From a virus: a stretch of 64,000 nt of DNA. Both the position numbers and the translations under genes were made by a program. The notes beneath the pieces are model-generated. The model saw only the letters and a program-made list of their open reading frames with translations. It was not told the DNA's origin and searched no databases. The stretch lies in UHGV virus genome UHGV-0091736; one strand, written 5' to 3'. This document shows positions 534 to 27,858 of the stretch, piece by piece (position 1 is the stretch's first letter; each line of letters opens with the position of its first letter).

Positions 534-2225
534 ATGCATATCAATTACCTTAGCACAACGAACTCCATCCTTCTCAATCCACTTGTTAAGGAACATCATA
601 GCGTATTTCATAACAACAGCACCAGCACATTGCAGGAGTGTGTTAAGTGCTTTATGAACCATAACTTTACCAGTGGCATCTCGTCTCATTGTAATCTTGC
701 GACCATCAACACCAATCAAGTACCCTTGAGCAGCTTTCTCTGTCATGCGATCAATGAGGATTGCAATACATGGGTTCTCTGCCAAGAAACGTGCTCGCAT
801 CACTGAACCTTCATCAGCCCCGCCACCTACAATTGAACCAAGCTTAGCATCACCAGCACCATAGTTGAATGCATAGATAAATGTCTTAGCATTGTCACGA
901 GTAGGGAGACCAGCAAGTTTCTGGTTGTGGGAGTGGATATCCCCTTCGAGGAGAATATCACGATACATAATAGCAGAAGCTAAACCGCGTTCTGCCAGAG
1001 CTTTCTTAGCTGGATTATTCTCTTCGATTGCTTCAGCAAGCATATCTCTACATTCTTTGATGAGGTAGTGAGCGAGCATACGAAGTTCAAGTCCAGAACC
1101 ATCATACCCTAAGAATACTTCTTTACCAGCGGGTATGTAATATTTGTAAGCACCTACAGGTTTGTCTTTCTTCCCCGGCTTACCTTTCTCGTAAATTACG
1201 TTAGTACCTTTTCGTATATAACAACCATCAGGAACAACGTTAGTAATAACGAAAGGACGAGAGTGATCACTGTCTGAGTTATAGTCAGACTCAAACAAAC
1301 TGCGACACTCGTGACCAAACAAACCACGGGAGGGAATATTAACCACGATACGATGTTTGAATCGAAAAGTCGGCGTAGCGCAGCTGTTAGCTTCTGCCGA
1401 AAGTTTACCATCTTCGCGTTCCTTTGCTATAAGTCCACTGATAAGACCTAGCCTGTGAGCCGCTACAACACGTCTCTTAAGCAAACTTCCAACACTCCCT
1501 AGCTCACCCCCTAACCCTTCTTCAAGAGTCTCCTCGAGGTTTGTAGGAGCTGTAGGCCACTTGTTTGATGTAGCTAGTGCTTTCTTAATCTCATCAAACG
1601 TTACAGGGTTACGGCGATTAGGGTTTAATCCCAAACCAAACACGTAAGCCTTCATGTAATTCTTAGTCTTAAACCTAAAATGCTTTTCTAAGAATTTCTT
1701 GATATCAGCGTCAACCATCTCGGCTGTCTGCTTCTGCTTAGCACTGCCTCTCATCCAAGCAGTGTACCAAGCCTGATATGTTCCATACTTTCGCATGTCT
1801 TTCTTAATTTCGAAAGTATTCCAAGGCTTCTTAGATACGTTAAACTCTGGAGGAAGAAAGCCCTCATCCATAAGAGCTTCTTTAACTCGTGCATCTTTCG
1901 ATGGGTCAAAGTCTACATATTCTACACAGGTGAATGCTCCACCAATGTCTTCTCTCTTCAGCCCAACCCTATCACAATAAGCTTGAGGCCACTTCTGCAA
2001 AGCACCAGACTTCTTAAACGGCTTCATGTAAGTAGAGCCATCTAATCTCATCTTAGGTAAGAGAGGAATCAACTCTCTATCAATATTAACAATAATCTCT
2101 TTAAGGAGGTGAACATACCACCGAGCATTTCTTCGGTTGAAACTCACTCCGTGCTTTGCTTGCTTAGAGATTATATCAGCGACAGTCATCTCTGTCAAAA
2201 ATGGAAGAGCGTCCGGGTTGCTCAC
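534..2225 (-). CDS. DNA polymerase family A, polymerase domain, exon 1 (GTG start; ends at H of motif C HDE)
   Basis: Motif A LGYDGSGLELRMLAHY and motif B RDNAKTFIYAFNYGAG. AAGGAG RBS 7 nt before the GTG. ORF track 504-2225, trimmed to the predicted 5' splice site. Confidence 0.85.
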
Positions 2226-2241
2226 TTTATACTCCTTTGAA

Positions 2242-2646
2242 TTATTGGTAAAGTAAATCTGTAAATGCTTGGTTGTCAGTTATTGCATCTAGGTCATTAT
2301 GAGATACTCGGATAACATTACCTTCAACTCTCCACGGAGTTGGCGTAGGTGAAGACCTAACTTCAAGAGGCTGCTCTCTGACTAAATGGGCCATGACCCT
2401 CTGATTGGCAACTTCCTCTCTTTCTCGAATAGCTCTTTGGATGTAGGCCAGCTTCATGCCCCAAGCTTCTTCAAACTCTTGAGGATGTTTGTCACTGATA
2501 ACCACATACTGACGCTCAGGGATACCAGATCGAATCTCTGATAATAATTCATGGAACAAATCAAGTTCATGTTCAGTGAGATTCATTTCGATATCATCCC
2601 ACTTGAGAACTAAGAAACGGTTTTGATATCTAGTTGGTAATGGCAT
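2242..2646 (-). CDS. hypothetical protein (134 aa)
   Basis: ORF track; ATG start; tightly packed with neighbours. Confidence 0.6.
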   Translation of the reverse strand: MPLPTRYQNRFLVLKWDDIEMNLTEHELDLFHELLSEIRSGIPERQYVVISDKHPQEFEEAWGMKLAYIQRAIREREEVANQRVMAHLVREQPLEVRSSPTPTPWRVEGNVIRVSHNDLDAITDNQAFTDLLYQ

Positions 2647-2649
2647 AGC

Positions 2650-2934
2650 TTAACCTTTTGGGAATGGCATTAAAGACTCCATAGCAGATTTAATTTTGCT
2701 ATTGATTCGAGCATCTCTATAAGAGATAAACTTACCTTTGCTATCTCGTAACATCACATGAGTTCTGGCTGTTGTGTTAGGAAGTAATGTAATCCCAGTT
2801 GGGATATTGTCAACCCCCACAGGGAGTTTGTGAATAGTCTTACTTTCAGTTAATAGGTAAGACCAAGTAATTGGTTTACGATCTGTTCGATTAGGATATG
2901 TGTCTCGAATCTGAACCATAGCTAATTTATTCAT
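2650..2934 (-). CDS. hypothetical protein, paralog of 2936-3187
   Basis: Shares ARTxVxLRxxxGKFISY...PFPKG with the adjacent ORF. Confidence 0.6.
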   Translation of the reverse strand: MNKLAMVQIRDTYPNRTDRKPITWSYLLTESKTIHKLPVGVDNIPTGITLLPNTTARTHVMLRDSKGKFISYRDARINSKIKSAMESLMPFPKG

Positions 2935-2935
2935 A

Positions 2936-3187
2936 TTAAACTCCTTTAGGGAATGGGATGAGGTTTTCTACTGCAACACGAAAAGATTTTTCTACATTCT
3001 TATTCTTATAAGAAATGAATTTACCATCAGCACCACGAAGGATTACGTTAGTACGAGCTGTATTGGAAACTAAAGTGATCATAGAGATGGTGTTATTTTT
3101 TGAGTTGTTGTAGTTGTTATCGAAAGTCCACTTATCCAGACGATCATCCATTACATCAATAATAGTTACAGTTTTTACGATAGACAT
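2936..3187 (-). CDS. hypothetical protein, paralog of 2650-2934
   Basis: Same C-terminal motif (ARTNVILRGADGKFISY..IPFPKG). Confidence 0.6.
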   Translation of the reverse strand: MSIVKTVTIIDVMDDRLDKWTFDNNYNNSKNNTISMITLVSNTARTNVILRGADGKFISYKNKNVEKSFRVAVENLIPFPKGV

Positions 3188-3219
3188 ATTTGTTACCTAA
3201 GAAGTTTAGTTTGGTTTAT

Positions 3220-3250
3220 ATAAAAGAAAAGGCCACCCATTTGGGTAGCC
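3220..3250 (-). terminator. Rho-independent terminator (minus)
   Basis: Minus RNA reads GGCUACCC-AAAU-GGGUGGCC followed by UUUUCUUUU. The mismatch becomes G.U only on the minus strand. Confidence 0.6.
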
Positions 3251-3255
3251 TTATA

Positions 3256-3573
3256 TCATGATGAGCTTAAAGCTCCTTTGCGTGCTCCAGCTGCTTTTCC
3301 AGCTCGATCACCACTTTTGCCGCCGTTTGAACGGTTTGAGCTGACTGATTCAACACGTAAGTTGCTTGACGCATTAGAGCCTCCAGACTTGATAGCTCGT
3401 TTGTGTCCAACGTCTTTACCTCTGACAGCAGCTTTTCCATCGCGCTTTTCAACGATGCGACGTGCACGGTGGCGCTGAGCATCTCCGCTCTTGCTCCCAA
3501 TGCCTGTTTCACCACGGGCAATTGCGGTACGTCTTTCTTGTGCATAATCTCTCTTTCCTACATGGTCTGCCAT
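3256..3573 (-). CDS. basic K/R/G/S-rich small protein (105 aa)
   Basis: AAGGAG RBS 8 nt upstream of ATG. TAATGTATA element 37 nt upstream. A 92-aa alternative-frame ORF is embedded (see findings). Confidence 0.6.
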   Translation of the reverse strand: MADHVGKRDYAQERRTAIARGETGIGSKSGDAQRHRARRIVEKRDGKAAVRGKDVGHKRAIKSGGSNASSNLRVESVSSNRSNGGKSGDRAGKAAGARKGALSSS

Positions 3574-3609
3574 TTAAAACTCCTTAACATATCAGTGTAC
3601 ACTAAGGAG

Positions 3610-3618
3610 TATACATTA
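3610..3618 (-). promoter_or_regulatory. TAATGTATA promoter-like element (phage sigma-type consensus)
   Basis: Exact TAATGTATA on the minus strand, upstream of the 3573 start. Confidence 0.5.
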
Positions 3619-3629
3619 TAAGTTACTGT

Positions 3630-5348
3630 TTAAGCTTTCTTTTCCATTGCTTTAACAATCGCCTTACAGAAACCAGAACGAACAATATCATCTGATTCAC
3701 CATCTACAATCTCAGCAAACTCATACAGATCATGTTCATCAATAAAGTTAGTAGCCCAAGTAAGACCACTCTCACGACCACGCATATCATGCTGGTTAGT
3801 ATCACCCATGCAGAACAGCTGAGAGGTTTCTCCCAATCGAGTCATGATTGAGAAGGCTTCATCTTTAGTTGTGTTCTGGAACTCATCCACGATAACAATG
3901 GCATCATTGAAAGAGCGACCACGGAGATATTCCAGAGGTACAAATTCAATGTTACCATTTCCGATTTGGCATTCATAGAACCCCTTACCATATCGCTGAG
4001 TAATAACATCAATGATAGGCATCAGGTATGGTTCAAACTTCTCACGCATCCCCCCCGGAAGTAACCCAAGAGAGTTACCCATGCCGACCGAAGGGCGACT
4101 CAGAATGATCTTCTGAATCTTACCACTCTTCAGTGCATCAATAACTGTGGAAGTGATTACAAAGGTCTTACCACAGTTACCTGTCACGAAAATGTTATCA
4201 TCTCGACGGAGCAACAGAGCACCTGTTGAGGTTGTAAAGCAATATTTAAAACCATCCTCCGTCTTCATCTTTGTGATCACAGCTTTCCCAGATTGTGGGT
4301 TGTTTGGGGTAATACTGATATGTGTCTGTTTAGAGAAATAAACACGATACTCTAGAGATTTACGAGTATATCCACCATACTCCCGACCAACTCTGTCGTA
4401 AGTTATGATAGATGATTTGTAACCACACTGCATTCCTACAAACTGGATATAGTCTGCATCATCTTTATCGGAAGTAAAGAAAGGTGGTAGTCTATTTCCT
4501 TGTAGGGCAAAACCCCCGTCCCAGAATTTAATCTCATCAAAGATGATTTTAGCATCACTCTTGTTACACAAAGGCCAGTCTTTATACCTTTTAGTCGCAC
4601 CTAGAAGAGAGAAAGATATTACATGAAACCCTGTATCATCTGACTTTTCTGAGTAATCTAAATGGAGAGTATCCAATAACTCTTTGAGTCGAGAAATCTT
4701 CCTCTCTTTCTTTAATCTGAAGACGAATCGCGAGGTGGACTCTGTTTCCAAGTGGGCATCAGCCTTGATGGCAACATGAAGACGTAATTCAGGTTCAGAT
4801 AGACCTAAACTTTTCCCTGAAACAAAGTTGGATGTAGTTTTAATTAGACCCTCAAACCCTATCTTCTTCTTGTGGTGCCTTGAAAGAAGATCAGATACCT
4901 TGATTTTGTTCGCTTTGTCTTTATCTCCCTTACGATAATAAACGACATTATGGTCATCACATAACGCCTGAGATATCCCACGGTATGTTTTAAACAAGTT
5001 CAACTCTTTACACTCTTGTTTAATATAAGCTACAGGTTTTTCTAAATGAGACTCTCCTGTGGTTAAGTTTACTGCTGTTATTAAATCACCTTCCACATAG
5101 TCAGAAATCTTTTTCCATCCAAACTCTGAGAGAAACTCGGTATCCTTATCAACACAGCCCGCAGGAGCGTCTGTGAACACAACTTGTTTAGTCTTAATAG
5201 CATTGAGTAGCTCAGACTGAAACTGGTTCTGAGGGACTACAGGCTTTGCTAAAACCACCTCTTCATACTCTCGCTTACCCTTACGAGTAACAAGTGCTTC
5301 CCGACGAAGGTCTTTCCGTGATTCTTTCCTTGATTGACGACGACTCAT
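3630..5348 (-). CDS. phoH: PhoH-like ATPase precursor containing an intein
   Basis: Walker A is split as ..DAPAG | intein | CGKTFV... The C-terminal part has ILSRP, LLPG, IVIVDEFQN (Walker B) and GD..Q, as in PhoH. Confidence 0.8.
   Translation of the reverse strand: MSRRQSRKESRKDLRREALVTRKGKREYEEVVLAKPVVPQNQFQSELLNAIKTKQVVFTDAPAGCVDKDTEFLSEFGWKKISDYVEGDLITAVNLTTGESHLEKPVAYIKQECKELNLFKTYRGISQALCDDHNVVYYRKGDKDKANKIKVSDLLSRHHKKKIGFEGLIKTTSNFVSGKSLGLSEPELRLHVAIKADAHLETESTSRFVFRLKKERKISRLKELLDTLHLDYSEKSDDTGFHVISFSLLGATKRYKDWPLCNKSDAKIIFDEIKFWDGGFALQGNRLPPFFTSDKDDADYIQFVGMQCGYKSSIITYDRVGREYGGYTRKSLEYRVYFSKQTHISITPNNPQSGKAVITKMKTEDGFKYCFTTSTGALLLRRDDNIFVTGNCGKTFVITSTVIDALKSGKIQKIILSRPSVGMGNSLGLLPGGMREKFEPYLMPIIDVITQRYGKGFYECQIGNGNIEFVPLEYLRGRSFNDAIVIVDEFQNTTKDEAFSIMTRLGETSQLFCMGDTNQHDMRGRESGLTWATNFIDEHDLYEFAEIVDGESDDIVRSGFCKAIVKAMEKKA
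4176..5156 (-). mobile_element. Intein (327 aa) in the PhoH P-loop, with degenerate LAGLIDADG-like endonuclease region
   Basis: Starts CVDKDTEFL (block A-like) and ends ..NIFVTGN followed by +1 Cys. Excision restores APAGCGKT. Candidate dodecapeptides are LHVAIKADAHL and FDEIKFWDGGF. Confidence 0.7.
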
Positions 5349-17122: not shown

Positions 17123-19153
17123 TTAACCTCTATTCAATGAACATTTAGGAGAATTACAATAAACTTGATTCATAGAACCAAGCGTACAACTTTCAGCATC
17201 GCGCCACGGAATCTGCTTAAAACACTCTGAGCAGTATCCGAGGGTTGACCACATGGCTTTGGTGAAGTCAGTGCTTCGGTTTCCGTCGAAGCTGACAACA
17301 GTTTTGCGGAGAGCTGTTCGTGATTCAGGAAACACACCTGCTTTCTCAGCAGGTTCCTCCTTTTTTGGCTTAGTTGAGATTGCAAAAATACTGTTGCTAC
17401 GTTTCTCAACATAAGCATCAACAACATCCTCCAGAGTGATGCCTGTTTGTTTCGCTGAGGAAGGTAATACAGTCATACGACCAATCATTTCTTCAGTTAC
17501 ACGTAAAGCAAACTCAGGACGACGGGTGTTTGTTGTATCTGTTGCTTTAATCCAGACATAACCATCTTTGATCGTAGCATTAGATACTTTCTTCTTTACT
17601 TCTACAGCGCAGACTTTACAGATATCTTCACCACGAAGACGACTAAGTTCATCATCGAACTCATTCTCTGTTTTAACCTCACCACAGATTTCACAAACAC
17701 CAATAGGAGTCTCCTCCTCTTCTTCCTCTTTAGGTTTAGTCAAACTTTCCAGACACTCTGGATGCCAGTAGCATTGATATGCGAAGACTGCTTTAGGTGC
17801 ATCCTTCCAATCAATGTGCTTGTCACAACCACCACAATCACCATGAGAGTGTGCTTCCCAGAATTTACGAGTGATAGTAACGCCATTCTTGTTGACGAAA
17901 CTATCATTCATATCAAAAGGGATATCATCATCAAAATCAGCAGTAGTTGACTCAGGCTCCTTTTTCTCCAGAGATGGGTCAACAAAACGACCTGCTGTGA
18001 TCACTAAACGAACCATAGCATTGACTTCGGAGATGCAGGATACTGTCCCACGGTAAACAATTTTAGGGTCTTTCAGGGCATCCTGATAGGCCTTAATGTC
18101 TACGTTATGAACATCACCTTCGATATACTCTTGAGATTTCTCATCGTAGATATAACCAATCATCTTACCACGAGAAGGGACAGCACCAGAAGTTGCATAA
18201 GGAACAAACTCATGCGGAGTGATTTCCACAGTCATGTCGCGGCGAATATCAATGTTTCGATCGCTTGCGATTTTGTTTTGACTTACCACTGCGTTTCTTC
18301 GACGAACATCTGCCGCCGTCACCCCCGGCTTCGTGTCGTAAGGATTGCTTGTACTGCTTTTTGAGGAGCTTTGATAGTTGCTTTGGCTGTAGTTGTTCGA
18401 GTAGTAACTGGCCCAACGATTGACTACCGTAAAAACCGGAAGCTCATGGGCGACCTCTTCAACCAGTGTCATGCTGTTATTTGACATGTCAAAGATGTAC
18501 TCTGTACCAACCTTACATTCAAAATGCTCATCAATGCGGTTCTTGTGAGACTTCGAACGCTTCAGAATCCACATCAGCATATCTTCTTCAGAAGCACCAA
18601 ACCAATCTTTATTACAACGTGCGAGATGGAAAGGACGTTCTTCGTTACGAATAATATGAAGCCGGTTATCAGAAGCATCATGCCAGATTAAAGTGAAAGC
18701 ACCATCCAACTTTTGAATAGTCTCTGCTGCACCAATGGTGTTAATAGAGTGGCAGATGTTCTCGCTGTCTACCTCGAAGTTTTTACTGTCAGGTAACAGG
18801 TCTTGGTCAATCAAGGTTCCGTTATGAACCAGAGTGATGTTACCGTGTTGGAAAGGATGGGCGTTCTTGGCGTTAACTGCACCTTTCGTTGCATGACGGC
18901 TGTGACCAACAATCCATGAAGGTGCTACAGTGTAAGATGTTTCACCAGTGGTATGCTTCTTATACTCATCTTGTAGGATGAATGCGAAAGAAGGAAGGGC
19001 TTCTTTATAAGTGAAGACCTCCTTAGTGCTCTTACGCTGACCAAAGATACCAGAAGAATGTTGTCCTCGGAATACCCCAGCATAAAAGAGTTGGTTGAAT
19101 ACGTCTAAATCGGTGCTTGACAGATTACCGCCAGCTAATACGATGCCACAAAT
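17123..19153 (-). CDS. class II (Ntn) glutamine amidotransferase fused to a Cys-rich zinc-ribbon C-terminal region; AUU start
   Basis: Frame is open up to the TAG at 19157-19159. N-terminus reads (I)CGIVLAGGN..RGQHSSG..GHSRHATKG..NAHPF..LVHNG. AGGTGG SD 8 nt before ATT-TGT. The ORF track begins only at 18814. Confidence 0.75.
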   Translation of the reverse strand: MCGIVLAGGNLSSTDLDVFNQLFYAGVFRGQHSSGIFGQRKSTKEVFTYKEALPSFAFILQDEYKKHTTGETSYTVAPSWIVGHSRHATKGAVNAKNAHPFQHGNITLVHNGTLIDQDLLPDSKNFEVDSENICHSINTIGAAETIQKLDGAFTLIWHDASDNRLHIIRNEERPFHLARCNKDWFGASEEDMLMWILKRSKSHKNRIDEHFECKVGTEYIFDMSNNSMTLVEEVAHELPVFTVVNRWASYYSNNYSQSNYQSSSKSSTSNPYDTKPGVTAADVRRRNAVVSQNKIASDRNIDIRRDMTVEITPHEFVPYATSGAVPSRGKMIGYIYDEKSQEYIEGDVHNVDIKAYQDALKDPKIVYRGTVSCISEVNAMVRLVITAGRFVDPSLEKKEPESTTADFDDDIPFDMNDSFVNKNGVTITRKFWEAHSHGDCGGCDKHIDWKDAPKAVFAYQCYWHPECLESLTKPKEEEEEETPIGVCEICGEVKTENEFDDELSRLRGEDICKVCAVEVKKKVSNATIKDGYVWIKATDTTNTRRPEFALRVTEEMIGRMTVLPSSAKQTGITLEDVVDAYVEKRSNSIFAISTKPKKEEPAEKAGVFPESRTALRKTVVSFDGNRSTDFTKAMWSTLGYCSECFKQIPWRDAESCTLGSMNQVYCNSPKCSLNRG

Positions 19154-19232
19154 TTTCTAATCCACCTGAAGGGTAAACCCTTTCATCTAATTAACCTTTA
19201 AATTGTGCCCCTTTACCAGAGGCACCCATTGA

Positions 19233-20336
19233 TTACAGCGCTTGTTCTAACTGGTTTTCCAAATGGTCTGGAATGTACCCTGTGATATTGCTATCACTGT
19301 GACCTGACTCACGCAGCAAGTCAAAAATAGCACGGACACGTTGTTCTGGAGCGTGTCTTACTTGAGACAGGTCAGTTGTACTAAGCATAACCAGAATCTC
19401 TTGGTACAAGCTGTTAGCATTCCCTCGAACATATCCAAGGAATCCATAGAAGTCTGGAATAAGACGTAAGTCAACAAGAGCTTCTCCGTTTGGGTTGGTT
19501 CGTCGTAAACGAATACGACCAGACTGCTCTACTTCATGAGAACGGCAATACAAAACATCACGGGCCATACAATATCCTGAATGCAAATCCAACTCATCCA
19601 GATTGTAATCCAGAGGGAGATAAGGGAGCATTGGAGTGAATCGTACAGTATTTAAATGCTCAACAAACTGATCATTGCTCATATCTGCGTTATCTAAAGC
19701 CAGCTTCTTCAACATCAAGAAACGGTTAACCAAATTGAGAAGTTGACCACGTTTCCACTTAGGCTCACTGATACGGAACTCAATCGAACCATATTGGGCA
19801 AGTGGCAGAAGGTTCAGAGATGTGTATTTATCCCATGAACGAACCAGACGGTTGAAGAATTCTTCACCATCGTAGTTAAATGCGTCAGAGGCATTCATCA
19901 CCTGTGCTTGTACCACTGCAAACGCAGGGCAGAAGTTGCTACGGTAACGATGGTAGCCCGAACACTTGAACAACATCTTTTCATAGAAGGTCCAAGCGAG
20001 AATGGTTTTCTTGAGGATATTACTATCAGCATCCCTCATATCCATATGAACGTGAGTAGAGCAACGCCAAGTCCCCTCGGCGTGCGATTCAGCTACTGCT
20101 TCACTCAGGTTGTTGATAGCGTCTAACAACTCCTGTCCATTGTAAGGCCGTGAACATACCATTTCACAACCATTACGCAGGGAACCATCCTCTGTACAAT
20201 CCCACATATCTGCTTCGATATGATCGGAACCTTCGAGTTCAAGTTCAATACCGACACCGCACTGAAGTGCAATTGAACTATGCTCCTCAGTTAAACGACC
20301 TTCTCGATATCCAAAAGTTTGCGCTACAGTTGTCAT
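19233..20336 (-). CDS. amidoligase (glutamine-synthetase-like COOH-NH2 ligase, Amidoligase_2-type)
   Basis: CGVGIELELEG..EDGSLRNGCEMVS..CSTHVHMDM pattern. Confidence 0.65.
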   Translation of the reverse strand: MTTVAQTFGYREGRLTEEHSSIALQCGVGIELELEGSDHIEADMWDCTEDGSLRNGCEMVCSRPYNGQELLDAINNLSEAVAESHAEGTWRCSTHVHMDMRDADSNILKKTILAWTFYEKMLFKCSGYHRYRSNFCPAFAVVQAQVMNASDAFNYDGEEFFNRLVRSWDKYTSLNLLPLAQYGSIEFRISEPKWKRGQLLNLVNRFLMLKKLALDNADMSNDQFVEHLNTVRFTPMLPYLPLDYNLDELDLHSGYCMARDVLYCRSHEVEQSGRIRLRRTNPNGEALVDLRLIPDFYGFLGYVRGNANSLYQEILVMLSTTDLSQVRHAPEQRVRAIFDLLRESGHSDSNITGYIPDHLENQLEQAL

Positions 20337-20950
20337 AACGAATCCACCAACGTAATATTATAATTGCTAAGGTTTTCAGAAATGTGATGAAAGTGTTCCA
20401 GAAGTCGCATCGGTTGCTGACCGTAAGAGTCACGAGGTGCTTCCAGATCTACTTGCCCTACCAGTGCACCTTTATAATGCACCTTACCATCAGTAGGGTT
20501 GATGTAAATATAACGAGTAACCAATCCCTCGAATTCAGGATTGAACAGACTGTAAACCATCTCCCCGGAGATAGCACGACCAACACCCGGAGCATTTCGA
20601 ATCTTGTTACCCATCAAACCCTTTGCTCTCTGACGAACAGGGTTAATATGAGTCCAACTTACAGTGTTACCGTTATGGAACAGATAACCAACATCAGGTG
20701 ATTCAAGAATCAAGGTTGGGTCGAACACTGGAATATTCATCGTAGTGTTTCGAAGGTGCCCTTGCTCATTCTTGTACCACTGCTCTACAACAAAATACAG
20801 AGCCTGCTCTGCTTCGTGAGAGAAGTCATCGCTGCGGAAGTTACCGCTCTGCTCAACACCAATCACAAAACATGGAAGGTTGATATTACCTGCTCGTTTA
20901 GCAATCCATGTACCATTATAGTAATGAGAAAAATCAGCTACTAAGCTCAC
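20333..20950 (-). CDS. hypothetical protein (205 aa), ligase-cluster member
   Basis: ORF track; GTG start; overlaps the next gene by 4 nt. Confidence 0.55.
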   Translation of the reverse strand: MSLVADFSHYYNGTWIAKRAGNINLPCFVIGVEQSGNFRSDDFSHEAEQALYFVVEQWYKNEQGHLRNTTMNIPVFDPTLILESPDVGYLFHNGNTVSWTHINPVRQRAKGLMGNKIRNAPGVGRAISGEMVYSLFNPEFEGLVTRYIYINPTDGKVHYKGALVGQVDLEAPRDSYGQQPMRLLEHFHHISENLSNYNITLVDSL

Positions 20951-20959
20951 GATAACCTC

Positions 20960-21766
20960 TTATGCTACCTGAAGGAGTTTGATCTGCTGGTCCGCTTCTT
21001 TAACGTTGTTGCCGTTAATGATTTCATGAAGCTTCTCAATCGGAAGGCGAGAGTGCAATGCCATCAGAGTGGACATATCACACTGCTGAACAACCTTGTC
21101 AACCTGATCGTAAACAAACTTACGGTTTTCACGATCGCTAATCCAGAAGTTAGACAGCGAACGATATTCGATACCATAGTCTTTATAACGGATTGCAGAT
21201 GCTTTACCGTAGAGTTCTTTACGGCGAGTATCTTTGTCCATAATTACTGCTGGGAGTGATAGGAAGTAGTCACACAGCACACCAAGCATCATCTGAGTTT
21301 GCAGAGTGATATCCAAAGCCCCAACGACACCAAGATGTACGTGACCACCGGCAGTACGAAGTCCCTTATTCTGAGAAGTTGGGGATGGGTTTTTCTGACC
21401 AGTGAAAGCGTTGAAGTCAGGAGTGCATCCAAAGATGAACGCTGATTCATTAAAGGTCTTCATCTCTTCTTCGGTGAAGATGTGAGAGCTGACACCCGGA
21501 GCTGTTTCCATATCCAGTTTGTTCAGGACTTTATTGGTGAGATCAATACCACGTTGCATGTTATCATTAAACGCTTCAAAACCGCTCTGTGGGTCAATAT
21601 CAAACTCAGCCAATACGTTGTCCTCTTGAAGACGAACATCCTTAGCCAGAGCGATCTTATCGTCCTTAGAGCAGCCTAGAAGACCGGCTACAGAGGTGAT
21701 GATGCCGTTGCTAGTACGAACGAAGAGCTCAGGGTCGCTGCCTATTAAGAATTTGCGCTTAGTCAT
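20960..21766 (-). CDS. COOH-NH2 ligase type 2 (phiEco32-like family)
   Basis: N-terminal FLIGSDPELFV and GGHVHLG motifs, recalled as typical of that family. Confidence 0.6.
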   Translation of the reverse strand: MTKRKFLIGSDPELFVRTSNGIITSVAGLLGCSKDDKIALAKDVRLQEDNVLAEFDIDPQSGFEAFNDNMQRGIDLTNKVLNKLDMETAPGVSSHIFTEEEMKTFNESAFIFGCTPDFNAFTGQKNPSPTSQNKGLRTAGGHVHLGVVGALDITLQTQMMLGVLCDYFLSLPAVIMDKDTRRKELYGKASAIRYKDYGIEYRSLSNFWISDRENRKFVYDQVDKVVQQCDMSTLMALHSRLPIEKLHEIINGNNVKEADQQIKLLQVA

Positions 21767-22730
21767 TGTAATACTCCACTAGTTCAGAAAAGAGAGATGA
21801 GATTGTGTTACCAACTTCTTCAAGTGTAAGTCCAGAGCTTGGACCAGTACGTTGAATCAGTCGGGCTGTAAAGTTTTGTACTGTAATGTTTTCCAACTTA
21901 TTGTCTATTGTTTCACGTTTGTGACCATGACAGTTGGACCAGAGTTTTAACCACCCTGACATTGTTTCATACTCGTCTGGGTCTTGATCTTTATCAAGAG
22001 CAAACCCTCGTAAGGCCTCTGGGTTATGGTTACGAACATAACCATTCTCATTGTAACCAACACCGAAGGGGTTTTGAACCCATACTTGCTTCGTGTACTC
22101 ATCAGAGTCTACAACCAAAGGAAGGAATGCTGCTGCTGACATACCATTGTTGATAAGAATGGCTGTGTTCTCTCCACTCCCATTGGGGATTCCTCGTTGA
22201 GACCATCCACCGAAGAAGTCACGACCTAACCCAGCTAACACTAGAGCGATGCCTATGCGTTTACGCTTCAGCCACTCTTCCCTGTCTTCAATTCCTTCTG
22301 CTAGGAAATCCATTCCACGATACTGCCCTTCCAGAATACTACGAAAGAGCATAAGTCCTGTGAAGATCTGATCTGCTGGATGCTCACGAAGGTTGACAGC
22401 AACACTGTTCGCTGAAGTGATAGTAAATACATCACGATAGCAAGACATGGAGTTCATAATGTCTGCTGTTTCAACCAAGATCTTTTCAATCTCAGATGCA
22501 GGGTGATTGTGAAAAGAGTGAGTCCAGTAATTCAACATCTCCAGTTGCAAGTTGATACCACGGTTGAAGCGTTTATGACGCCCATCTTCCATGATATATT
22601 CGCCATTAATGTCAATTAAGAGGTGGCTTTGCATGTAGTTGTGGACACCGAAGCACCCACAACCTAAGAACTTCTGTTCCCCTAAACCCTGTTGAAGATT
22701 TAGAGGCACGATCGTTGTAGAGATTGCCAT
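21759..22730 (-). CDS. hypothetical protein (323 aa), ligase-cluster member
   Basis: ORF track; 8-nt overlap with the downstream gene. Confidence 0.6.
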   Translation of the reverse strand: MAISTTIVPLNLQQGLGEQKFLGCGCFGVHNYMQSHLLIDINGEYIMEDGRHKRFNRGINLQLEMLNYWTHSFHNHPASEIEKILVETADIMNSMSCYRDVFTITSANSVAVNLREHPADQIFTGLMLFRSILEGQYRGMDFLAEGIEDREEWLKRKRIGIALVLAGLGRDFFGGWSQRGIPNGSGENTAILINNGMSAAAFLPLVVDSDEYTKQVWVQNPFGVGYNENGYVRNHNPEALRGFALDKDQDPDEYETMSGWLKLWSNCHGHKRETIDNKLENITVQNFTARLIQRTGPSSGLTLEEVGNTISSLFSELVEYYND

Positions 22731-27781: not shown

Positions 27782-27858
27782 TGGCGCACCGTGTAGGACT
27801 CCAACCTACAACCTATTTCTTAGAAGGAAATTGCTCTCTGCAATTGAGCTAACGGCGC
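27782..27858 (-). tRNA. tRNA-Arg (anticodon UCU), CCA encoded
   Basis: Hand-folded cloverleaf: GCGCCGT/ACGGTGC acceptor, GCTC/GAGC D stem, ATTTC-CTTCTAA-GAAAT anticodon arm, GTAGG-TTGGAGT-CCTAC T arm, G, CCA. 77 nt. Confidence 0.85.

Follow-up and report, generated by a model that had tools for sequence, protein, structure and literature searches.

An AUU start codon immediately before the catalytic cysteine of a phiEco32-like phage glutamine amidotransferase, and its recurrence in the enzyme family

We describe the start of a glutamine amidotransferase gene in the virus genome UHGV-0091736; the window is the whole stretch of 64,000 nucleotides (nt) that was analyzed. The gene lies on the minus strand at 17123-19153. 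It is best explained, with a probability of about 0.8, as a class II (N-terminal nucleophile, Ntn) glutamine amidotransferase (GATase) that is started at an AUU codon (19151-19153) directly before its catalytic cysteine codon (Cys1, UGU, 19148-19150), with the AUU serving as a selected, deliberately weak initiation site. The window belongs to a phiEco32-like Kuravirus and is at most 94.9% identical to known isolates over the GATase region; phiEco32 itself has 93.8% nucleotide identity there.

Identity and start codon of the amidotransferase gene

The initial annotation of the window proposed that the gene must initiate at AUU immediately before its catalytic cysteine in a frame closed by TAG, and the sequence bears out these positions. 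Read 5' to 3', the strand runs ATG (19186-19184) AAA GGG TTT ACC CTT CAG GTG GAT TAG (19159-19157) AAA (19156-19154) ATT (19153-19151) TGT (19150-19148) GGC ATC GTA. Between the in-frame TAG and Cys1 the frame has just two codons, AAA and ATT, and as had been claimed it contains no ATG, GTG or TTG. A Shine-Dalgarno (SD) sequence, AGGUGG, is indeed found 8 nt before the AUU (19162-19167; anti-SD duplex energy -7.0 kcal/mol). The full coding sequence (CDS) has 676 codons plus a stop. The first in-frame ATG, GTG or TTG after Cys1 is a TTG at 18812-18814, 113 codons downstream, and automated open reading frame (ORF) callers start there. That call was rightly described as 113 codons late: the codons lost from the 563-residue product contain Cys1 and glutaminase motifs, and the catalytic N-terminus is removed. 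The initial annotation did not include a 9-codon mini-ORF (MKGFTLQVD*, 19157-19186) that is predicted from the in-frame ATG 5' of the TAG and is in the frame of the GATase gene.

The whole window was scanned for long frames without a canonical start but with an SD sequence followed by ATT, ATC, ATA or CTG. Among long frames the scan returns the GATase gene alone, and the remaining matches are frames of 59-91 codons. Chance occurrence in the window therefore does not account for the AUU-before-Cys configuration.

Judged by its sequence, the gene product is a class II (Ntn) GATase. The 677-residue translation matches the Pfam families GATase_6 (E=1.6e-14, 54.4 bits, cut-off 27) and GATase_7 (27.5 bits, cut-off 25), and matches to GATase_6, GATase_7 and GATase_4 fall within residues 77-194. 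A PDB search with the single sequence (phmmer) gave no matches, and a profile was required. A profile of eight homologues matches the GlmS glutaminase domain (1xff, E=6.8e-10), PurF and AsnB, and the PurF chain 8w7d is aligned with the profile from residue 1 and position 1. These matches, together with the ATT-TGT junction, uphold the claim that the cysteine is residue 1 of a class II enzyme. Invariant across the homologue alignment are C2-G3, R29-G30, H84/R86/T89, N97-A-H-P, N111-G112, and D129-S-E, and in the homologue profile they align with the GlmS motifs RG.DS.G, HTRWATHG, NAHP, VHNG, and ETDTE. We take them to correspond to the glutamine-binding and oxyanion residues Arg26, Arg73/Thr76, His86, Asn98-Gly99, and Asp123 of GlmS. 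The two C-terminal SIS domains of GlmS were not found by Pfam at E<=0.01, where the 677-residue translation gives GATase domains only; because of this, the RefSeq name "L-glutamine-D-fructose-6-phosphate aminotransferase" is unsupported.

The initial annotation suggested checking whether homologous phages conserve the AUU; all of the phiEco32-like relatives that were inspected do, and so does Aeromonas phage BUCT695. We find ATT-TGT in phiEco32, Paul, Bas90, EP335 (Nieuwekanaalvirus), SU7 (Suseptimavirus), BUCT695, IMG/VR genomes, and independent metagenome assemblies. A sequencing error at 19151-19153 is ruled out by the same ATT in many independent genomes and assemblies. Codons 2-113 have ratios of non-synonymous to synonymous substitution rates (dN/dS) of 0.023 against phiEco32, 0.083 against EP335, and 0.077 against SU7. 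The ratios for codons 114-230 are 0.02 against phiEco32 and 0.096 against EP335 (the synonymous rate, dS, against SU7 is not computable). The upstream codons are under strong purifying selection like those downstream and are therefore translated. Proteomics of SU10 infection recovered nine peptides of the GATase orthologue, so the protein is made (PMC4281155). By elimination and by conservation the AUU is the start, because the frame has no other entry and the codon is conserved.

The AUU start of the phiEco32 gene is not new; it has been public in the type-phage record since 2008. GenBank EU330206 (2008) and RefSeq NC_010324 give gp83 (ABY52884.1 / YP_001671828.1) as a CDS of 2031 nt, the length of the window gene, from the same ATT. 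It is the sole ATT among 128 CDSs in that record (ATG 112, GTG 13, TTG 2), and the annotation was therefore deliberate. gp83 is the orthologue and has an identical leader; there is no substantive difference, and the window represents another Kuravirus isolate. The Bas90 record inherits the ATT start. The Paul record is truncated by 113-114 codons (CDS 2190-3878 vs 1848 for the ATT, with the TTG 113 codons in), and Cys1 is lost from the records of EP335 (58 codons cut), SU7 (10 codons), and BUCT695 (11 codons). Pseudomonas phages FBPa8 and IME180 and Klebsiella phage Asterion are likewise annotated in truncated form. SU10 gp85 is apparently truncated too, and its listed mass of 63.8 kDa equals that of the truncated form. 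A literature search on AUU or ATT starts of phage amidotransferases, which did not reach the phiEco32 papers PMC2587145 and PMC3275717, returned nothing relevant. What appears to be undescribed is the recurrence of AUU and AUC in about one fifth of the enzyme family, the hairpin-SD leader, and an infC-like mini-ORF junction.

Weak start codons and their leaders across the enzyme family

The codon before Cys1 was recorded in two surveys. A profile-based survey of IMG/VR (80 loci) gave ATG 63, ATT 13, ATC 3, and TTG 1, and an independent scan of metagenome contigs (77 loci) gave ATG 55, ATT 15, ATC 3, and TTG 4. ATT and ATC account for 20-23% across the two surveys, and the start codon adjoins Cys1 in all 157 loci where Cys1 could be located. 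GTG was not seen before Cys1 in either survey; it starts about 10% of phiEco32 genes, and pre-Cys GTG occurs in the cultured phages phiM6 and APT65. Of 16 viral AUU/AUC loci, 15 have no canonical start in the stretch from the last stop (TAA, TGA or TAG, at varying positions) to the cysteine. In one leader (L032) the frame is open from an ATG 12 codons upstream, without a stop.

The weak starts are scattered over the family. A neighbour-joining tree built from 77 N-terminal domains has AUU/AUC starts at nine or more distinct positions. Sister proteins that are nearly identical can have different start codons and unrelated leaders (L059 with ATC vs L086 with ATG; L081 with ATT vs L078 with ATG). 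BUCT695, a phage of another family (Grimontviridae) whose protein has about 52% identity, keeps the ATT; closer relatives (Privateer, Vp_R1, SE131, L021, L022, and L025) have ATG-TGT and unrelated leaders. Cultured phages outside the phiEco32 clade with the same architecture are Asterion (ATT), FBPa8 (ATT), and IME180 (ATC). Cellular homologues, including those from metagenome-assembled genomes, have ATG-TGY in 12 of the 12 cases with a locatable pre-Cys codon, and the one exception among the genome matches (L104) is a phiEco32-like phage contig.

We compared 119 distinct leaders (loci L005-L010 and L017-L203), including 20 with AUU/AUC and 95 with AUG. A hairpin was counted if it closes 12-19 nt before the start at <= -2 kcal/mol; the statistics were computed in Python, as stems without common sequence and loops of unequal length cannot be registered by MAFFT. 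Such an SD-adjacent hairpin is present in 15/20 AUU/AUC leaders vs 16/95 AUG leaders (Fisher, p=8.5e-7). The AUU/AUC leaders also have a stronger mean SD-anti-SD duplex energy (-8.3 vs -7.0 kcal/mol, p=0.005) and more A at positions -3 to -1 (mean count 2.35 vs 1.33, p=1.4e-5). All ten hairpins in the first leader set end at -14 to -16, where shuffles expect 1.3/14. The resulting translation initiation region (TIR) has a 5-8 base pair hairpin ending 14-16 nt before the start, an SD that is often GGAGG, and an A-rich spacer of 7-9 nt with AAA at -3 to -1. Between leaders the stem sequences are unrelated (AAGGGT/ACCCTT, CCGTAT/ATACGG, GACTAAT/ATTAGTC, GTAGCC/GGCTAC, GAGGTC/GACCTC, AACCTC/GAGGTT, AAAGCC/GGCTTT, GAAGGC/GCCTTC, and others). 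From these comparisons, it is the structure and register of the predicted hairpin that are conserved, and not the sequence of the stem.

The two classes of gene also differ in what precedes them. The median gap to the upstream ORF is 1 nt for AUG genes vs 34 nt for AUU/AUC genes; 63 of 90 AUG homologues have a gap of <=5 nt, and AUU/AUC and UUG homologues are usually behind a real spacer. ORF-abutting AUG and spacer-preceded AUU/AUC/UUG look like alternative expression settings for the same gene. The hairpin enrichment is not a by-product of longer spacers, as the association holds at gaps of >=15, 25, and 35 nt (at >=15 nt, 13/14 AUU/AUC vs 2/18 AUG leaders, p=3.8e-6).

Very divergent proteins share the same SD, spacer and start: GGAGGATTAGAAA before ATT, GGAGGATTATAAA before ATT, GGAGATGAGAAA before ATY, and AGGTAGGAACCYAAA before ATT. 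A scan of IMG/VR with four leader types, in which the third base of the start was left free, found 12 GATase loci with ATT in 9, ATC in 3, and ATG in 0. No start codon within a leader type ends in G; its third base is either U or C. The weak codon thus persists, U and C replacing each other, and does not go back to AUG.

Two further features were seen in these leaders. The leaders L034, L058, L032, and L072 (= L219, L221, L218), of the GGAGATGAGAAA-ATY and GGGGATGAGTAA-ATT types, have an AUG out of frame at a distance of 8 nt from the AUU/AUC. It directly follows the SD core and, by eye, opens an overlapping mini-ORF of 6-7 codons (MRKFVE...). L063 and the pair L207/L213 (FBPa8 and IME180) share the same GAGGATAAAATT before ATY with the hairpin arms exchanged (GAGGTC...GACCTC vs AACCTC...GAGGTT) and the pairing preserved.

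The leader of the phiEco32 clade and the explanations for the weak start

In the window, the leader contains a hairpin, AAGGGU-UU-ACCCUU (19169-19182, -4.6 kcal/mol), directly 5' of the SD with its 3' end 16 nt before the AUU. A block of 46 nt (19154-19199; AAAGGTTAATTAG ATG AAAGGGTTTACCCTT CAGGTGG ATTAGAAA) is identical at 46/46 positions in EP335 and SU7. Third codon positions just downstream are 45-48% identical, with a saturated dS of 1.8-2.2, and the leader is therefore constrained far beyond the needs of a generic hairpin and SD. The block includes the start region of the mini-ORF (AAAGG, 8 nt, ATG) and its UAG (19157-19159), which is 3 nt before the AUU (UAG AAA AUU). The ATG and TAG are kept in all phiEco32-like phages and in BUCT695, whose leader has two changes only, one in the hairpin loop and one that turns AGGTGG into AGGCGG. 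Both are non-synonymous in the mini-ORF, which has no SD in BUCT695. The stop is replaced by UAU in five related leaders (L142, L146, L198, L226, and L228) and is therefore not universally required. Most AUU/AUC lineages are without a comparable mini-ORF, and any coupling to it is therefore clade-specific.

The predicted fold of the leader (z = -1.95) offers a second pairing. The minimum free energy structure pairs GGUUUACC with GGUGGAUU (19161-19181, minus strand), which hides the SD and excludes the AAGGGU/ACCCUU hairpin. As a conserved switch this SD-sequestering hairpin is unsupported, since it is broken by both BUCT695 substitutions with no compensation. The pairing is invariant within Gordonclarkvirinae and may act as a clade-specific switch there. 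Translational bypass or frameshifting from the mini-ORF is rejected, as the frames are identical and no landing codon matching GAU follows the UAG. No further copies of the leader or of its promoter-like motif were found in the window, and Rfam has no family for the leader in 18900-19500, where a sub-threshold mir-26 match elsewhere in the segment is due to chance.

AUU is decoded by initiator formylmethionyl-tRNA (fMet-tRNA), and AUU and AUC are low-efficiency starts that initiation factor 3 (IF3) discriminates against, as in infC and pcnB. We propose that fMet-tRNA would decode the AUU, and that removal of methionine would expose Cys1 and yield the same mature protein as an AUG start. The predicted mature N-terminus is CGIVLAGG, and the N-terminal peptide without methionine would be CGIVLAGGNLSSTDLDVFNQLFYAGVFR. 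Discrimination by IF3 would keep synthesis low and possibly IF3-sensitive for a gene preceded by a spacer, in contrast to the AUG homologues, most of which are coupled to the ORF before them. Compensation by the strong SD and the A-rich spacer, and perhaps by the hairpin, would leave the weak codon usable. In the phiEco32 clade, termination at the mini-ORF stop 3 nt before the AUU probably supplies reinitiating ribosomes in addition to those that initiate de novo. Three roles are conceivable for the hairpin: docking or stacking next to the SD helix, shielding the TIR from the cistron upstream, or guarding the 5' end of an mRNA that is translated sparsely. What the comparison shows is a conserved weak codon with a special leader; translational regulation, which the initial annotation took such starts usually to imply, is an inference.

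A broader version of this proposal is tentative, and we give it somewhat less than even odds. The hairpin, strong SD, A-rich spacer and AUU/AUC before Cys1 may form a recurrent, selectively maintained module that acts as a translational governor, keeping synthesis low and possibly sensing IF3. Such a module would occur in unrelated lineages (Escherichia, Aeromonas, Klebsiella, Pseudomonas, and marine phages), be far better conserved than the proteins behind it, and have been overlooked through truncation by gene callers, with an infC-like mini-ORF stop added in the phiEco32 clade.

Several points weigh against the weak-start explanation. The leaders were counted as independent though several are homologous (the GGAGGAT[TG]A[GT]AAA-ATT and GAAAGGTAGGAACCYAAA-ATT types); the effective sample is therefore smaller and the independence overstated. 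About one quarter of the AUU/AUC leaders have no hairpin. The SU10 search database held the truncated 63.8-kDa model, in which N-terminal peptides are undetectable. A hairpin just before the SD was nearly neutral for an AUG gene in reporters (Osterman et al.), and a role in stability or insulation is therefore favoured. We also infer, rather than observe, IF3 sensitivity, low expression, and translation of the mini-ORF.

Since the stems are all pure Watson-Crick, they are compatible with DNA-level palindromes, and the SD-adjacent repeats could be elements for protein binding or, as 5' stem-loops on a poorly translated mRNA, for RNA stability against RNase E. They would then lie outside initiation and co-occur with AUU/AUC as both mark stand-alone units of transcription or processing. 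The longer gaps before AUU/AUC genes, the neutral reporters, and the 5'-terminal position of the BUCT695 hairpin by its predicted transcription start agree with this. We nevertheless consider it unlikely, as the hairpin has its 3' end at a fixed -14 to -16, which is the register of the ribosome-binding site and not of a promoter, and AUG leaders with comparable gaps mostly lack a hairpin (2/18 have one). Equally doubtful is a mechanism in which the AUU is reached mainly by termination-reinitiation from the mini-ORF UAG, with translation of the mini-ORF, gated by the hairpin 1 nt after its ATG, controlling the GATase. The geometry of stop, 3 nt and AUU is identical to that of infC, and the TIR of the mini-ORF lies inside the fully conserved block with its ATG and TAG kept in BUCT695. 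The scarcity of comparable mini-ORFs in other AUU/AUC lineages, the TAT in place of TAG in several leaders, and the BUCT695 mini-ORF, which lacks an SD and whose ATG would lie near the 5' end of a transcript from a promoter-like AATGTA motif, speak against it; reinitiation is therefore at most a clade-specific addition.

The other two explanations have little probability. Translation could start at the ATG at 19186, read through the UAG, and give a 12-residue leader (MKGFTLQVD-X-KI) whose autocatalytic removal would expose Cys1. Some Ntn amidotransferases are known to be processed from a propeptide, which in B. subtilis PurF has 11 residues. The ATG here is in frame with AAAGG 8 nt before it, ATG and TAG are conserved with the leader (BUCT695 included), and the L032 frame is open. 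Against these stand the behaviour of TAG, an ordinary stop that ends 14/128 CDSs in phiEco32, none with internal stops, and the tRNA content of the window: its only tRNA is tRNA-Arg(UCU) at 27782-27858 on the minus strand, matching the tRNA-Arg annotated in phiEco32, and no suppressor was found among the window tRNAs. Frames are closed with no upstream canonical start in 15/16 viral AUU/AUC loci, the BUCT695 mini-ORF changes give no sign of selection on the peptide, and the 8-nt spacing from SD to AUU is optimal for initiation at AUU. We regard readthrough as very improbable. Less credible still is an untranslated N-terminal region, with the true product being the 563 residues from the TTG at 18814 or the gene decaying. 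Automated callers choose this TTG, several GenBank records annotate it, and SU10 proteomics lists the 63.8-kDa form; that mass is the mass of the database entry and not a measured size. Codons 2-113 have the same dN/dS (0.02-0.08) as those downstream, and the catalytic Cys and the conserved glutaminase motifs lie in or span the region of codons 1-113.

Gene neighbourhood, related systems and significance

The C-terminal region of about 440 residues (17123-18430, minus strand) has no Pfam match, is rich in cysteine, and contains an acidic EEEEEE stretch. It includes CxxC pairs such as HGDCGGCDKH...YQCYWHPEC, CEICGEV...CKVCA, and CSECFKQ...CNSPKC. The GATase gene is downstream of a minus-strand cluster (19233-22730) with an Amidoligase_2 gene (19233-20336), a gene for a phiEco32-type COOH-NH2 ligase type 2 (20960-21766), and two genes without Pfam matches. 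In phiEco32 the ATP-grasp enzyme gp80 is encoded just downstream of the GATase.

The upstream amidoligase gene ends at a TAA (19235-19233) and is followed by a predicted terminator-like hairpin at 19205-19225 (GUGCCUCU-GGUAA-AGGGGCAC). Its stem has a compensatory change in SU7 (GGGCGC.../...GCGCCC type) and its loop varies among relatives. The record of phage WFI101126 lists it as a terminator; it has no T-run and is not called by the consensus scan, which found no sigma-70 promoter or intrinsic terminator consensus on the GATase strand. Promoters recognized by the phage sigma factor gp36 have the consensus AATGTA, centred at -11.5 (PMC12276001; PMC4281155). In relatives the motif is found 20-30 nt upstream of the GATase gene, exact in L009, L007, L021, and L025 and as AATGTT in L010/SE131; the aligned place in the window (19193-19198, minus strand) and in all Kuravirus relatives reads AAGGTT. 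This may be a decayed or altered promoter, perhaps explaining the early class of the gene in phiEco32-like phages. The SU10 paper assigns the region with the GATase to the early genes (PMC4281155). In BUCT695, a transcript started from the AATGTA would begin near the mini-ORF ATG, with the hairpin at its 5' terminus.

The junction resembles that of E. coli infC, in which an AUU follows a GGAGG-type SD at a distance of about 8 nt and a stop at 3 nt (UAA GGU AUU vs UAG AAA AUU) (PMC3592434). In reporters of the infC junction, reinitiation provided about half of the expression and de novo initiation about as much, and AUU was about four-fold below AUG (PMC3592434). The upstream frame of infC is the long thrS, unlike the 9-codon mini-ORF here, and the phage gene encodes a metabolic enzyme with a hairpin abutting the SD. 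The infC AUU serves autoregulation of IF3; for the GATase a link to IF3 is a proposal.

The AUU of E. coli pcnB, which encodes poly(A) polymerase, is said by Binns and Masters (2002) to limit an enzyme that is harmful in excess. Unlike the GATase, pcnB is a single chromosomal gene with no recurrent family-wide trait, and no conserved hairpin-SD leader has been described for it. The B. subtilis PurF type is also a class II GATase that needs an exposed Cys1, and the in-frame ATG 11 codons upstream here would give a leader of similar kind, with 12 residues. Unlike in that type, a UAG closes the frame here and other stops do so in relatives; there is therefore no propeptide, and Cys1 would be exposed by ordinary removal of methionine. 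The phage protein shares the glutaminase domain and the Met-Cys N-terminus with cellular GlmS, PurF, and AsnB. It differs from them in lacking SIS, PRTase, and synthetase domains and in having a Cys-rich C-terminus and an amidoligase/COOH-NH2 ligase cluster.

Gene callers limited to ATG, GTG and TTG lose the catalytic cysteine of such proteins, and the resulting entries resemble inactive enzymes and skew proteomics searches. Although extremely rare (about 1/128 genes in phiEco32), AUU and AUC starts occur in about 20% of one enzyme family, which suggests selection for a weak and perhaps factor-sensitive start on this gene of the amidoligase/GATase cluster. The dozens of diverse natural hairpin-SD-AUU/AUC sites, several of them in cultured phages of E. 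coli, Klebsiella, and Pseudomonas, provide a test system for non-canonical starts. The same sites could show whether phages exploit discrimination by IF3 during infection.

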